Virus record (IMG/VR): IMGVR_UViG_3300032038_000018
Span: 32,001-96,000 of that record
Strand: one strand, 5' to 3'
DNA from: a virus
Lineage: Duplodnaviria > Caudoviricetes
Length of the DNA stretch: 64,000 bases
Part shown: in pieces, positions 12,110-25,646 of the stretch
How positions within the stretch are numbered: the stretch's first letter is position 1
How the letters are laid out: each line of letters opens with the position of its first letter
Notes under the pieces: model-generated
What the model was told of the DNA's origin: nothing
Database searches by the model: none
The model's input: only the letters and a program-made list of their open reading frames with translations
Position numbers and translations under genes: made by a program

Positions 12110-14581
12110 ATGCAAAGGGCCGATTTGATAAAGAAGCTAGATACCGAAATAGCTGATATTGGGTATTGTCATTCAATAACTTCAATATCACCCGGAACTG
12201 AATGTAATGCGTCAAGAGCACAGATGCTTGCCAATAACTTGAAGCAGACACAGGTTATGGAAAATCCTGATTTCCCTAGAGTATTCTCTGGTATGGAGAA
12301 CTCTTTTGGTAAATTCTGTAGAGGATATAAACGTATAGAAGGCGATTGGCGAGTTATAAAGAGAATACAGAAATACACTAATGGTAAAATATTCTCAGTC
12401 GTACTCTTCAATGACAAGACAAATACACTAGACATAATAGAGAATCCATTTGCTGAAGATGGACCTGAAAGATTCGGATACAAATATAACTATGACGAAC
12501 TTGATAAACTTCATGATGGAGATGTAGTTAAGGATGGCACTGTAGTTTATAAATCTAATTCATATGATGACCATATGAATTATTGCATGGGCTTCTCTGC
12601 TAGAGTTGCTTACAATACATCTGTATCTACTCTTGAAGATGGTATTATCATTAGAAAGAGTTTCGCTGATAGTAAGTTTACTAATGAAGTAAGTAGCTTT
12701 GTTGTATCTATAAACGACAATGAGATTCCCTTGTTAATTCATGAATATGATGGTGGATTTCATTCAATACCTAAGATAGGTGATCCCGTAAAGGGAACAG
12801 ATCTCGTAGCTATCAAGAAGATCAATAAGAGAAAGATAGCATTTGACTTTACCAACGATGCAGTTACTAAGCCTGATAAAAACTGTGCTATGTATACTGT
12901 AGGTAAGAATAGTGTAATCTATGATATAGATATATACTATAACGATAGCAATGAATTCCCTGATAATTCATTCTATAAAGAGCTCGCTGTATATTACAAA
13001 GAGCAATACAATTACTATTCTCAGATATTTGATATCTGTGAAGAGTTTAAACATAAAGGATGCAATAGAACTTCCAATGCAGATCTTATGCACAAGAAAG
13101 CTAAGGATTTTGTCAATGTGCATGATAGCGATTTCAAATGGAAGAATAAAGAAAGAGCATTCTCATACATCAACATAGTATTTCATTGCATAAAGACATT
13201 ATCACTTCATGAAGGATATAAGATCGTTGGTAGATATGGAGACAAAGGTGTTATATCTGAGAGACGTGATGATGCATCTGAGATACTGACTAAGAGATTT
13301 GATCCTACTAATCCGAGAGATAAAGCTATAGCTAAATATCTTGGTATAGAAGGATCTCCTGAAATGAATATTAGCATTGTACCCGATGCATGTATGTATT
13401 ATGACGAAGATGGCAGATATGTAGATATATGCCAGAATGCAGCAGCTGCATACAGACGCGAGGATACAGGACAGCTTACAGAAGTAGAAATCAATTTCAT
13501 ATCTGAAGAGATAGTCAAAGAGGCTAAGAAGAGATATGAAAAAGATGGATTAGATGCTGCATTTGAACTTCTTATGAGCTATGCTGAGCAATTCCCTGAT
13601 AGTGAAATGAGAGCAATAGCTAAAGAATTCGATTTGGTATATGTCGTATCTAAGAAACTCTGGAAGACTAGTAAGAAAAATAAGCAGAGATTTGTAGAAG
13701 ATATCTTTAGAGATGGATTCTATCTGCAGAAACTTCCTACTGCAGATTGGAGATTCGATAGGATATGCAAACTGTACGATATGTATCCTTTCATTAAGAG
13801 AAAGACAATGTATATCAATAACTTTGGTATAAAGCATAAAGTAGTTAATCCTATGATAGTAGGAGAGAAATACTTCTTTATACTTAAGCAGAACTCTAAT
13901 AAGAATTTCTCTGCTAGAAGTGTATCTAAAGTAAATAAGTTAGGTTTACCATCTAAGAGTGCTGATAAGAAAGAGTCAAGAACTAATATATCAGATACTC
14001 CTATCAACAGAGGTGAGACTTATAACTTACTTGCTGCAGTAGATGCTGCAACACTTATGACAAGCGATATATTCACTAAGAATTCTCCTGTAGCTAGGAA
14101 GGATTTCAAGAATATTATTACATCACCATTGGATCCATTCAAGTATAGACAGATGAAGATTAAGCAGTCTTATACCAATGTGAATGTACTTAATCTTAAA
14201 GCTAGACTTAAGACTATGGGTATCGGGTTTGATATCATAACTAATAAGTCTCTGGGTCTTGCTATAATAGATCAGTATAAGACGTTTATGAAGTTTAATG
14301 AGATAACTTTCTTTGATTATGGTTATAATAGAAAGTATTATGCTTTCATTATCAATAACTATAATAAGCTCAAAGATCCTAAGAAATCGTTTGATGATAC
14401 TTGGGAAGAGCTTATATCAATGGAAGAATTTAAACTTCTGGAAATTGATGACGAAATAGTAAAGACTGCACATGACATTATGGAAAAGTATTATTACGTG
14501 GAGCCATCTGCTGCAGATGCACTTATTGAAGATGATATCCACGAGATAATAACAGTCGACAATATTCCCGATAAAGACTAA
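12110..14581 (+). CDS. RNA polymerase beta subunit, C-terminal part (probably non-virion RNAP)
   Basis: ASRAQMLANNLKQ, LEDGIII, GYKIVGRYGDKGVIS, VGEKYFFILKQ..FSARS. Confidence 0.9.
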   Translation: MQRADLIKKLDTEIADIGYCHSITSISPGTECNASRAQMLANNLKQTQVMENPDFPRVFSGMENSFGKFCRGYKRIEGDWRVIKRIQKYTNGKIFSVVLFNDKTNTLDIIENPFAEDGPERFGYKYNYDELDKLHDGDVVKDGTVVYKSNSYDDHMNYCMGFSARVAYNTSVSTLEDGIIIRKSFADSKFTNEVSSFVVSINDNEIPLLIHEYDGGFHSIPKIGDPVKGTDLVAIKKINKRKIAFDFTNDAVTKPDKNCAMYTVGKNSVIYDIDIYYNDSNEFPDNSFYKELAVYYKEQYNYYSQIFDICEEFKHKGCNRTSNADLMHKKAKDFVNVHDSDFKWKNKERAFSYINIVFHCIKTLSLHEGYKIVGRYGDKGVISERRDDASEILTKRFDPTNPRDKAIAKYLGIEGSPEMNISIVPDACMYYDEDGRYVDICQNAAAAYRREDTGQLTEVEINFISEEIVKEAKKRYEKDGLDAAFELLMSYAEQFPDSEMRAIAKEFDLVYVVSKKLWKTSKKNKQRFVEDIFRDGFYLQKLPTADWRFDRICKLYDMYPFIKRKTMYINNFGIKHKVVNPMIVGEKYFFILKQNSNKNFSARSVSKVNKLGLPSKSADKKESRTNISDTPINRGETYNLLAAVDAATLMTSDIFTKNSPVARKDFKNIITSPLDPFKYRQMKIKQSYTNVNVLNLKARLKTMGIGFDIITNKSLGLAIIDQYKTFMKFNEITFFDYGYNRKYYAFIINNYNKLKDPKKSFDDTWEELISMEEFKLLEIDDEIVKTAHDIMEKYYYVEPSAADALIEDDIHEIITVDNIPDKD

Positions 14582-14644: not shown

Positions 14645-15307
14645 ATGAAAAAGTTTCTCGCTATCTGTGAATATGGTAGCTTTATGAAGATATTGTTTAC
14701 TAATGACAGTAATTCTAAAGACCTTATTTCTGAGGTACAGAATGCTATCACAGAATGCCCTTATGAGACATTTGAAACACCCATGGGTATTTGTAAGATA
14801 TATAAAGAGAATAATACTTGGGTAGCAGTTACAGATGACATGTGCGTAGAGATACTTGAGAACGAAACAGATGTTGAAGTACATCTTGACTTTGAAGATG
14901 AAATTAATGACCTTAGTGACTTTAAGGATATAATATATCTTAAGATATGCTACATACTCGGATATATTATCTATAGAGATCCGAAGATATATACGGACTT
15001 ACTTATACCTTATATGTCTAAGGTAATTGGTGGAGTTGAAGGAAGTTCTATTAATTTTAATGAATATAAGATATTCACTGATCTTGAAGAGAAGGTCAAC
15101 AATATAACTGATCACATTTCTATGCAGGATATCATATTCCACAATAACATGAGGAATTATGTTGGCTCTGATGAAATAATTGCAGTTACAGTTATAGATA
15201 TGACATTTGCTACCAATATATTTAAAATAAAGGATATATTCTGTATAGGAGAAGAGCTTTACGAATACAAAAAGGAGATGGACAAAGGACTCGTTACAGA
15301 GCAATAA
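14645..15307 (+). CDS. Hypothetical protein
   Basis: AGGAGG RBS; 220-aa ORF. Confidence 0.7.
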   Translation: MKKFLAICEYGSFMKILFTNDSNSKDLISEVQNAITECPYETFETPMGICKIYKENNTWVAVTDDMCVEILENETDVEVHLDFEDEINDLSDFKDIIYLKICYILGYIIYRDPKIYTDLLIPYMSKVIGGVEGSSINFNEYKIFTDLEEKVNNITDHISMQDIIFHNNMRNYVGSDEIIAVTVIDMTFATNIFKIKDIFCIGEELYEYKKEMDKGLVTEQ

Positions 15308-15311
15308 GAAT

Positions 15312-15346
15312 TATAGCATATGCTACCCGCATATGCTATATTTTTT
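15312..15346 (+). terminator. Intrinsic terminator
   Basis: TATAGCATATGC-TACCC-GCATATGCTATA plus T-tract. Confidence 0.8.
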
Positions 15347-15367
15347 GTTTATATATTATATTATTGA

Positions 15368-15955
15368 TGAGGATAGGTAATAGCCCGGGATGATGCCCCC
15401 GGACCTATCCACTTACAGATGCGTGGTCAACTGTAAGCGGTATGGGCGCTTGGGTTTGGGAACCCCTGGGTCGGCGCCAATGCCATCGTTTCCAGAGGAA
15501 ACTCAATATCTGGTTCAGCCTTGTGCGTCAATAAAAGGCGCATGACGAGCAAATTGGATTAGAGTATCTCTCTTGCTACCACTTTGGAGACGATGAAACA
15601 AAACATGATTAACAGCGAGGCTTATGCACACTTCACATACATTATTCGGAAACGGATACATTATGTTGGTGGCCTCACCGCTTACAGGGTGAACTGATAT
15701 AGAAGATCATTAAGAAACTCATTACTATATAGAGATGGTTGCATCGTCTCTATAGAACTAACGATTCTTTAGCATAGCTAATCCACTAGCGTGCTTTAGA
15801 TATACAATGATCCGATATAACTACGTATCAATATCTTAAATGGATTTATATGCAAAGGTGCATCACGCCAGATGCAATCGGAGGATATAATGAAGTATAA
15901 GAAATTGATATGTACACAATAGTCATCTGTATAAGTACATGCTTGCATGTACTTC
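15368..15955 (+). ncRNA. Candidate large structured ncRNA, unassigned
   Basis: No ORF of 60 aa or more, GC-richer than flanks, promoter motif at 15350, many local and long-range helices, terminator at 15933-15963. Confidence 0.7.
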
Positions 15956-16012
15956 TTTTTTTTGTTTATTTTTTGTATTTACTGGATACATATTTATAAA
16001 GGAGTGATAACT

Positions 16013-16930
16013 ATGAAGCCTAAAGACTTAACGGAATCATTCTATGATAAAATGATAAATATATTATATTCATATATTAAAGATTGCATAGATTGGAAAA
16101 AGATAAATGACATTGCACCTAGAAAAATACATTGGTATACAGGTAAAAAGAGATGCCAATTACTATTAGCAATCACTGATACAAAATCACCATATACTGC
16201 AAAATACTTTGGTGATGATGTATCTGCCGCTCAAGCTATGAGCCATTCTATATATTGCACTCAATCGTATATAGATAATTTCAGACCAACCAGATCTCTA
16301 ATGTACATGAAAGCATTTAGAAAAAGTTATATGGTAGATATATTTGATATGTGCACATGTAACTATGATAATATACTAAAACATGCTGATTATTCACATG
16401 ATAAAGCGTTGGCTGTGGTTAAATCATCCGGTGCAGATATGTTAATACAAACGGCCAATCAACTTAAGGCTGAATGTAGAACTAATCAGCTCAATCCTAC
16501 TGCTGAAAATTTTGAAACTGTCATAGAGCAAAATGAATTAATAATTGATATGTGCAATGAGCTAAGTCAAGTTACTAATCTATTTAGCTTAAATTGCAAA
16601 AGAGTTACAAGCAATGTACTTTTTACAATGTTTGATATTCAATCTCTATATAATATAGCATTCGATCCTGCATTTTCTGCTCTACAAAGATCTGATATAG
16701 ATGGATTCGAAATAGCTAGAAGACAAAAGATAGCCGGAGAAATTATATCTGCTATTGTAGATGCTATACATTCTAATGTAACAAGCTCTTACAAAGTAGA
16801 GATGGAATATGACAAAGAATATCAATGTGCAATGAAAGTACATAGACTAGCTATTCCTATAGAAGAAGACGAAAGTACATTATATGAAGTAAGAATATCG
16901 CATGCTGATCCATTAATAATATCGACTTAA
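16013..16930 (+). CDS. Hypothetical protein
   Basis: AAGGAGTG RBS before MKPK. Confidence 0.7.
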   Translation: MKPKDLTESFYDKMINILYSYIKDCIDWKKINDIAPRKIHWYTGKKRCQLLLAITDTKSPYTAKYFGDDVSAAQAMSHSIYCTQSYIDNFRPTRSLMYMKAFRKSYMVDIFDMCTCNYDNILKHADYSHDKALAVVKSSGADMLIQTANQLKAECRTNQLNPTAENFETVIEQNELIIDMCNELSQVTNLFSLNCKRVTSNVLFTMFDIQSLYNIAFDPAFSALQRSDIDGFEIARRQKIAGEIISAIVDAIHSNVTSSYKVEMEYDKEYQCAMKVHRLAIPIEEDESTLYEVRISHADPLIIST

Positions 16931-17012
16931 ATAGAGGCGTCAATTAAGACGCCTCTATTTAATTTATATATTATAATATTGATAATGACTGACAATTTAA
17001 GGAGGATTGCTT

Positions 17013-17156
17013 ATGCTATTAGTAATAATATGTATTATATTAGGATTTTCATTGTTTGTTGAAAAAGGAAAAAGAATCGCCGCTGAGATGGCAAATTCAT
17101 TTTTCAAATTTATAATTGTAATTCTTATTATAGTCATTATCATTATAATAAAGTAG
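17013..17156 (+). CDS. 47-aa two-TM membrane microprotein
   Basis: TATATATTATA at 16965, AAGGAGG RBS, MLLVIICIILGFSLFVEKGKRIAAEMANSFFKFIIVILIIVIIIIIK; below the ORF-track cutoff. Confidence 0.65.
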   Translation: MLLVIICIILGFSLFVEKGKRIAAEMANSFFKFIIVILIIVIIIIIK

Positions 17157-17179
17157 GCCTCGGCCTACTTTATTTTTTT
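17150..17179. terminator. Terminator between convergent genes
   Basis: AAAGTAGGC-CTCG-GCCTACTTT plus T-tract. Confidence 0.8.
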
Positions 17180-24705: not shown

Positions 24706-24745
24706 GAAAATATCCACTCTCTTAGAGAGTGGATATTAATTTTTT

Positions 24746-24821
24746 TGGCTCCCACAGCTGGACTCGAACCAGCGACCCTTTGATTAACAGTCAAATGCTC
24801 TACCGACTGAGCTATATGGGA
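24746..24821 (-). tRNA. tRNA-Asn(GTT)
   Basis: TCCCATA..TAGCTCAGTCGGTAGAGCA, TTTGA-CTGTTAA-TCAAA, GGTTCGAGTCC, encoded CCA. Confidence 0.95.
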
Positions 24822-24964
24822 TTATAATGACAGTTTTTAATGTGTTTCATGATATCTCGGATAACTGTCAACCTCAACCACCTAATTTTTTAATTGGTAA
24901 GCTACCCAATATAGTGGTGCCGGTGACGGGATTCGAACCCGTAAGGATTTCTCCGAGGGATTTT

Positions 24965-25646
24965 CGTACCACTATATCTTTCGATACCTAATATAATAAA
25001 TATATTAGTTTGTGGTCTGGAATCAATCTTCGTCTGTTCTAGACGGGACATGTATATTCTCTACGCACTCACCCTAAGGTGATTGGCACGGTATTGCCAT
25101 TGGGAAAGGTTTCACCGTTTAGTGTCCATTCATCGTAAGTATCCCTACTTACATGCTCGCGCCCACCGAATTTTTCCAAAGTTTCTTCACTTCTTTTAAT
25201 CTATCTTCTAATTCATAGTAAAAGATATAATCACCACCAGCTTTAGCTGAACATGATTTGGAACAGGTTAAATACCGCGGTCTGTTTCTATTAAGATCAG
25301 CATAAAACCTAGCCCACATGTGATACGTTATTGTAAATGGCTTACCACAAATCATGCATATTTCTTCAGTGGTTTGATATCTAAGTGCATGCTCTCTTTG
25401 GTGTTCACCATGTTTAACTACTTCCAGATTTGATAAGTCATTATTAGATGGATCACCATCTATATGATGAACATCTTCATTCGGCTCTAATAGTCTGCCC
25501 AATTTCTCTTCCATTAGAATTCGAGGATATGAACCAAAATGATTTTTGCCATTTTCGTCTTTATAATAATAACGAACACGGCCGTCTTTACAATTATAAG
25601 TTCTAATATTTTTCATATTTATTATCCTCTCTGGATTTTTATTCTC
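24965..25646 (-). mobile_element. Group I intron (682 nt) in the tRNA-Leu anticodon
   Basis: Follows U, ends in G; P3 GGACA/TGTCC; P AAACGGTGAAACC, Q GGCAATACCGTGCC, R GTAGAGAATATAC, S GAAGATTGATTCC. Confidence 0.88.
25149..25616 (-). CDS. Intron-encoded HNH homing endonuclease
   Basis: RILMEEKLGR..EDVHHIDGDPSNNDLSNL..H...H; C-terminal CxxC..CxxxC; GAGG RBS; lies inside the intron. Confidence 0.88.
   Translation of the reverse strand: MKNIRTYNCKDGRVRYYYKDENGKNHFGSYPRILMEEKLGRLLEPNEDVHHIDGDPSNNDLSNLEVVKHGEHQREHALRYQTTEEICMICGKPFTITYHMWARFYADLNRNRPRYLTCSKSCSAKAGGDYIFYYELEDRLKEVKKLWKNSVGASM

Follow-up and report, generated by a model that had tools for sequence, protein, structure and literature searches.

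Positions 15366-15963 (+ strand) of the 64-kb stretch of phage DNA analysed here (the window) very probably hold the gene for a structured non-coding RNA that belongs to a new family absent from Rfam. Taken as a whole, our observations are best explained by a stand-alone non-coding RNA gene of ~600 nt whose product would be transcribed early and act in trans as an architectural RNA, and we consider this overall reading likely. Comparative sequence analysis has shown that it is the predicted fold of the RNA, and not its sequence, that is under selection. Judged by these features, the family is a new one within a known kind, that of the large ornate phage RNAs.

The window belongs to a 128-kb IMG/VR record (~52% complete) of a jumbo phage whose genome encodes a split multisubunit RNA polymerase (RNAP) of the AR9/PBS1/phiKZ type and a tubulin. 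The RNA locus of this lytic-type jumbo phage is positioned between a gene linked to RNAP beta and a functionally unassigned gene. On the upstream side, the RNAP beta-like gene (12110-14581) is accompanied by the RNAP-beta-linked neighbor, a 220-aa gene. On the downstream side lies a 305-aa gene (16013-16930), which is encoded on the same strand as the RNA and starts 50 nt past the terminator of the RNA. No Pfam or PHROG family was found for either flanking protein. An earlier sequence-only reading of the window had drawn attention to the locus as one of the longest gaps without a substantial ORF, and the gap at 15308-15946 is indeed the longest in the whole 64-kb window to lack an ORF of at least 70 aa. 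The GC content of the gap is 0.46-0.505, compared with ~0.31 in both flanks. The RNA is single-copy in the 128-kb record, itself ~52% complete, and the nearest tRNA is at 24746, 9 kb from the RNA. The only other GC-enriched ORF-free gap of the window (24706-25148; 443 nt, GC 0.41) is located in the tRNA region, and an Rfam search of it at the gathering score returned three tRNAs and nothing else.

Transcription signals are present at both ends of the RNA unit. The upstream 220-aa gene terminates in a 12-bp hairpin (15312-15340) followed by a T-run (terminator 15312-15349, + strand), and this predicted terminator isolates the RNA unit from upstream transcription; a hairpin and T-run precede the unit in the closely related homologues also. 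The adjoining sequence TATATATTAT (15350-15359, + strand) forms an early-promoter core that is followed, after a 6-nt spacer, by a predicted start at G15366. The early consensus of phage AR9, AAATATATATTAT-(6N)-G(+1), has been established by dRNA-seq and primer extension and assigned to the injected virion RNA polymerase (PMC5312081). The arrangement of TATATATTAT, 6 nt and G15366 is identical to the core of this consensus, and by this analogy the TATATATTATA motif, previously proposed to be the RNA's own promoter, would indeed be the core of an AR9-type early phage promoter. We infer, again from AR9, whose RNAP beta is only ~25% identical to that of the window phage, that the promoter is an early one served by the virion RNA polymerase rather than a sigma-70-like promoter. 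The promoter is conserved in all relatives as TATATATTATAATAGTG, and the pattern together with its T-rich lead-in occurs five times in the window against 0.66 expected. A second exact copy of the AR9-type early promoter (TATATATTAT at 16965-16974, G16981, same spacing) is found 1.6 kb downstream of that of the RNA. It is followed by AGGAGG, by a 47-aa, very hydrophobic ORF (17013-17156) and by a hairpin terminator (~17150-17171) held in common with a converging 745-aa gene, and the segment 16965-17180 is, on these features, a tiny early membrane-peptide cassette. Since the same motif with the same spacing stands before this cassette, the motif appears to serve the genome as a promoter.

The 3' end of the unit is defined by an intrinsic terminator (15933-15963, + strand) composed of a 9-bp stem, a CUUG loop and then C and eight U. 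This is the terminator originally proposed for the RNA, and a hairpin and T-run close the RNA unit in every homologue. Terminator-like sites number four against 0.7 expected and include both 15312-15340 and 15933-15954. The positions of the promoter and terminator lead to a predicted non-coding primary transcript of ~598 nt (15366-15963, + strand), which corrects the size of ~570 nt that had been estimated at first. Between the terminator of the RNA and the RBS of the 305-aa gene there is a further motif, TACA-N4-TATAA (15987-15999, + strand), which can also be written (G)GTACAT-N-TATAA. The motif was read in seven of the eight relatives inspected (including L007, L008, L011, L014, L018 and L019), the exception being L003, which has GACA and no TATAA. 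TACA-N4-TATAA resembles the AR9 late promoter consensus AACA-6N-TA (PMC5312081) and may, by that likeness, be the 305-aa gene's own promoter. It occurs once in the window, and the idea of a general late-promoter motif was dropped for want of over-representation there.

The transcript is extensively self-complementary, as had been noticed by inspection. The + strand has an MFE of -197.3 kcal/mol, compared with -154.5 +/- 6.8 kcal/mol for dinucleotide shuffles (z -6.3; z -8.0 with a second shuffle set), and the - strand has an MFE of -173.3 kcal/mol (z -5.0). The predicted fold contains 190 pairs, of which 23 are G-U, and several multistem junctions are seen in the predicted folds. The helices listed in the sequence-only reading are all present where it had placed them and most are part of the MFE fold, including 15617-21/15672-76, the GAAA hairpin 15643-58, 15728-39/15743-54 and 15857-64/15871-79, but the pairing of TCCGAT with ATCGGA is not used by the MFE structure.

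The RNA (all elements on the + strand) begins with a 5' hairpin, P1 (15371-15410), made up of an outer stem (15371-78/15403-10) and an inner stem (15385-89/15398-402) separated by a one-sided 6-nt internal loop, AAUAGC, and capped by a conserved 8-nt apical loop, AUGAUGCC. In the MFE fold the 5' and 3' ends are joined by P2 (15414-15421 with 15924-15931). P2 corresponds to the closing helix of ~500 nt span that had been envisaged before, but among the relatives only the nearest, L007, retains an equivalent and the helix is not family-wide. A perfect 11-bp helix, P3 (15431-15441 with 15677-15687), closes a conserved core domain of 257 nt. Just inside P3 the MFE fold has a GC-rich hairpin, P4 (15445-15478), which is followed by one strand of P5 (15484-15497 with 15582-15595; 14 bp, with G-U pairs) and by the P6 hairpin (15518-15550, core 15521-15545), whose 9-bp stem is capped by an A-rich loop of 7 nt, AAUAAAA. 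The conserved motif CUUGCUACCA (15572-15581) is apparently unpaired, and the 3' strand of P5 begins one base past it. The irregular hairpin P7 (15617-15676) has a GAAA tetraloop cap (15643-15658) and, like the variable 3' domain (15688-15923), is taken from the MFE fold; the latter contains 4-5 hairpins, among them 15728-39/15743-54 and 15822-41/15895-914. The core that is conserved corresponds to the 5' half of the molecule (roughly 15371-15687). A search for loop partners gave no consistent site and supported no pseudoknot or tertiary contact. The candidate pseudoknot partners of the P1 loop and of the conserved motif were rejected, the complementary 7-8-mers that exist in most homologues being in inconsistent places.

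A blastn search with the region against 50,697 phage records gave no match, nor did exact-pattern scans of IMG/VR with three conserved stretches or single-protein look-ups there with the 220-aa neighbor and RNAP beta. Related metagenomic contigs were identified through RNAP beta. Ten contigs with an RNAP beta 82-90% identical to that of the window phage (L003, L007, L008, L009/L010, L011/L012, L013, L014, L018 and L019) have a counterpart of 260-612 nt at the same locus. The gene order is RNAP beta, a ~200-aa gene, a gap of 355-705 nt and a ~300-aa gene, and was seen in every contig in this identity range that reaches far enough. The relatives' gaps open with a terminator and TATATATTATAATAGTG and close with a hairpin and T-run. 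Beyond the promoter and the initial 60 nt, the relatives' RNAs cannot be aligned in sequence. The flanking proteins of the window and L003 are 31% and 28% identical, and their RNAP beta subunits 83%. All 10 homologous regions nevertheless fold with z scores of -5.8 to -13, and in 10/10 the + strand is the more stable, by 7-51 kcal/mol, in agreement with the original assignment of the RNA to the + strand from its G-U pairs (23 in the window fold). The comparison covers ~8 independent sequences from one narrow clade. On this sampling, the RNA is kept in a small clade of jumbo phages that are uncultivated and come from the gut and rumen.

Since MAFFT misaligns the variable helices, whether given the entire RNA or the core domain, the helices were tested one by one, with the alignments for P1 and P6 cut by hand around the predicted stems. 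Compensatory changes, which the sequence-only reading had left to be sought among homologues, were found in P1, P3, P5 and P6. For P1 (nine sequences, gap-free), 97.8% of the cells are paired and 8 of the 10 pairs show double compensatory changes. The covariation of P1 is 0.94 as against 0.24 in shuffles, where 0/500 reach the observed value, and is at most 0.23 with slid partners. The P1 loop and internal loop are conserved in sequence, with the loop variants GAUACC and CCGAUACC and an invariant core GAUGCC/GAUACC. The apical-loop sequence AUGAUGCC is found again on the 3' strand side of P3 in subgroup B (L003:13475-13482 and the equivalents in L009 and L013), and in the window and L007 AAUGCCA is situated immediately before P5.

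P6, tested on five distinct sequences, is 100% paired with compensatory double changes in 9/9 pairs, a result reached by 0/500 shuffles. The P6 loop has the consensus RMUAAAR, in which UAAA is invariant; L007 and L008 have no canonical P6. The motif CUUGCUACCA is located 18-30 nt past P6 in nine homologues with a recognisable P6. Minor variants included, it is present in the window, L003, L007, L008, L009, L011, L013, L014, L018 and L019, and is the most conserved unpaired element. P5 is seen as complementarity between the 30 nt after the conserved motif and a segment upstream of P6 (10/10, p ≤ 0.005 each), with 6 compensatory changes between the window and L007. P3 measures 9-19 bp and spans 210-282 nt, with unrelated sequences among the homologues. 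Among all helices possible between the two segments searched, it is the longest, at the same relative place, in 8/9 homologues and is individually beyond shuffles in 5/9, the longest-helix background in AT-rich sequence being ~9 bp. RNAduplex with wide windows was too noisy for P3, and the window and L007 differ in P3 by 6 compensatory changes.

Toward the 3' end conservation is of place more than of form. A hairpin occupies the place of P4 in L007, L011, L014 and L018, and the P7 site is also a hairpin in homologues, often capped by a loop of GNRA type (L007 and L011, GUGA; L003, GGGAA). The 3' domain differs among subgroups and is missing from the unit of L019 (L019:4903-5162), a natural 260-nt minimal form that retains P1, a single long helix closing the domain, P6 and the CUUUGCUACCA motif. 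A covariance model from P6 to the motif (R3), built without L019, recovers L019 with 41 bits and an E value of 4e-6. In uncut alignments, the window and L007 share 77 consensus pairs of which 21 are compensatory, and the three sequences of group B (~90% identical) give 145 pairs, 10 compensatory, with many G-U intermediates.

The locus gives no coding signal. There is no RBS or conserved start codon behind the promoter, and the unit contains a 51-aa ORF at 15390-15545. Six-frame comparison of the homologues found no conserved peptide, with most subgroups sharing only matches of 12-21 residues. These peptide matches are in mixed frames and strands, the short ones coincide with conserved nucleotide motifs, and one weak match of 55 residues and 38% identity between L011 and L014 is on the - strand. 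No frame opens consistently if TGA, TAG or TAA is read as sense. Rfam 15 finds only tRNAs in the window and nothing at the gathering score in the loci of eight relatives. Lowering the threshold yields unrelated chance matches only in the 901-nt region 15200-16100 at E ≤ 10 and nothing in six relatives' loci at E ≤ 1. ROOL (RF03087) and GOLLD (RF01998) give no match at the gathering score, in the 901-nt region at E ≤ 10 or in the six loci at E ≤ 1, and there is no Rfam match to tmRNA, RNase P RNA, group I/II introns, 6S, OLE or self-cleaving ribozymes. ARAGORN also reports no tmRNA. These searches bear out the earlier judgement that the RNA fits neither tmRNA, RNase P nor group I/II introns, and the Rfam check suggested at that time has found no matching family. 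Two candidate resemblances were discarded: a tRNA-like 3' end (ACCA) or permuted tmRNA, for which there is no T-arm and ARAGORN is negative, and a likeness of P6 to group II domain V, in which the loop is wrong and Rfam gives no match.

Four alternative explanations of the locus need to be weighed. It is extremely improbable that there is no RNA gene and that the locus is instead a DNA element (an origin of replication, or a site of packaging or recombination), codes for a small protein or folds by chance. Although perfect Watson-Crick inverted repeats make up many of the helices, the - strand has a good fold of its own (z -5.0) and the 51-aa ORF is present, the + strand is favored in 10/10 regions with 9-30 G-U pairs per fold that are impossible on the other strand, and the compensatory changes include G-U intermediates. 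Moreover, every homologue has the element set between a promoter and a terminator, no ORF is conserved, and by eye there is no direct-repeat or iteron-like pattern. That the RNA is a very divergent member of a described large-RNA family such as ROOL or GOLLD, one of the two possibilities raised in the sequence-only reading, we consider highly improbable. The lack of any ROOL or GOLLD match at E ≤ 10 (901-nt region) or E ≤ 1 (six relatives' loci), the single copy in the 128-kb record and the distance of 9 kb to the nearest tRNA weigh against such membership, despite a similar size, phage origin, rumen and gut source names and an ornate multi-helix fold with A-rich and GNRA-type loops. The other possibility then raised, that of a new class, is the one that holds.

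The remaining alternatives accept the RNA and assign it another role. The RNA could be a long cis-acting leader, the 5' UTR of the ~300-aa downstream gene, with the terminator functioning as a regulated attenuator. The RNA and the gene are on the same strand with 50 nt between the terminator and the gene start, they adjoin in all close relatives, and in the window four base pairs that extend P2 are in competition with the base of the terminator stem. With synteny covering the entire region, the adjacency nonetheless carries no information, and no conserved anti-terminator goes with the competing pairs, P2 being confined to the window and L007. A leader would also have to end in strong terminators (9-18 bp with 7-8 U), tolerate the AR9-late-like TACA-N4-TATAA between terminator and RBS in most relatives, and, in contrast to the leaders that are known, have a length of 260-690 nt of which one half is dispensable; all these points make this account improbable. 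More credit, if still on the unlikely side, is due to a trans-acting decoy or sponge that would be made at the onset of infection to neutralise a host nuclease, an RNA-sensing defence protein, RNA polymerase or ribosomes. Early-promoter timing would suit a decoy, as would the persistence of a small number of invariant single-stranded segments (the loops of P1 and P6, and CUUGCUACCA) in an RNA that otherwise evolves fast, and rapid turnover elsewhere with a dispensable 3' domain would fit an arms race. However, the RNA shows no link to a partner, does not mimic a known ligand (there is no CRISPR repeat, tRNA, 6S or tmRNA signal) and no defence or anti-defence genes surround the locus. As to the role of the RNA, we tentatively favor a trans-acting scaffold or particle over a regulator or decoy, by analogy with other large phage RNAs.

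Several such RNAs offer points of comparison. ROOL (RF03087) resembles the RNA in its size of ~580 nt, in its many helices and junctions, in the conservation of structure over sequence, in having a function that is not known, and in its association with phages and prophages; ROOL was discovered in metagenomes from the rumen. ROOL has six multistem junctions and three covarying pseudoknots (PMC5737381). The window RNA, in contrast, has no Rfam-model match, does not lie beside tRNAs, has no established pseudoknot, is under a predicted jumbo-phage early promoter and has so far been seen in one jumbo-phage clade; ROOL and GOLLD are often found beside tRNA genes or in prophages, and this RNA is not. 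GOLLD (RF01998) is likewise a large ornate phage-associated RNA with one conserved and one variable half. The conserved half is, however, 3' in GOLLD and 5' in the window RNA, of which the 3' part is variable, and GOLLD is >800 nt and tRNA-associated, whereas the window RNA lacks an Rfam-model match. ROOL, GOLLD and OLE share a pattern in which free helices serve as struts and invariant elements as contacts. A further parallel, by description, is the pRNA of phi29, as a phage-encoded RNA with an early promoter and conserved loops on covarying helices. The phi29 pRNA is a structural RNA of 174 nt encoded at the genome end; it oligomerises by loop-loop pairing and is part of the packaging motor of small podophages.

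In the architectural reading that we favor, the RNA would be made in the opening minutes of infection, the AR9-type promoter implying, by analogy, that the injected virion RNA polymerase transcribes it as soon as the DNA has entered the cell. Helices that change freely, a dispensable 3' domain and a few invariant loops and strands together make up the pattern of an architectural RNA. Such an RNA would act in trans. Its covarying helices would be the struts of a compact particle, with putative contact surfaces at the invariant loop of P1, the UAAA loop of P6, CUUGCUACCA and the GNRA caps. The partners at these surfaces might be other copies of the RNA, as in ROOL and GOLLD, or protein, the ribosome or another RNA. 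Likeness to ROOL and GOLLD in size, ornateness and phage origin is the sole basis of this scaffold or self-assembly mechanism. A more specific form of the proposal, which we regard as unlikely but worth stating, is that phages have here evolved independently, for a third time after ROOL and GOLLD, an RNA that self-assembles into a particle (a homo-oligomeric ring or cage), or else that the RNA is a subunit of a new phage ribonucleoprotein. The injected polymerase would then make the RNA only minutes into infection, ahead of the formation of the phage nucleus, and the P1 loop, the A-rich loop of P6 and CUUGCUACCA would provide the inter-subunit or partner contacts.

To our knowledge, very few bacterial or phage RNAs of >500 nt have conserved complex folds, namely rRNAs, group II introns, GOLLD, ROOL and OLE, and the large RNAs studied so far did unexpected things, RNA-only cages being an example. 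The new family could show what large phage RNAs are for. It offers a natural minimal form of 260 nt and a short list of invariant elements, and its timing may be inferable, by analogy, from an early promoter of the type that the virion polymerase recognises in nucleus-type jumbo phages. Because transcription in vitro can supply the RNA with no need to culture the phage, it is also a good target for cryo-EM and probing.

We also looked for the RNA at greater evolutionary distance. Two contigs with an RNAP beta 48-52% identical (L015 and L022) have no comparable gap. A third, L016 (RNAP beta 48% identical), has at the same place a 692-nt GC-richer unit (L016:9273-9964) that folds with z -13 and has an AR9-type early-promoter core (ATATATTAT-6N-G), a terminator, a look-alike GUGAUAAAGAC hairpin and a UUUGUUUACC motif. 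When L016 is kept out of model R3, the model fails to recover this unit, and we claim no homology for it. A profile look-up retrieved 74 distant jumbo-phage loci with RNAP beta 23-39% identical, at which no comparable GC-enriched gap follows RNAP beta and the P1 and P6 core models give 0 matches at E ≤ 1 in 1 Mb. The two core models, which represent two motifs only, also found nothing significant in the genome of phage RaK2. Among the more distant contigs, five (L060, L064, L078, L087 and L093) have ORF-free interruptions of 400-830 nt inside the RNAP beta gene, which are possibly introns. Others (L072-L075, L079 and L095; first 2.5 kb) contain multi-kb stretches without standard-code ORFs, possibly reflecting an alternative genetic code.
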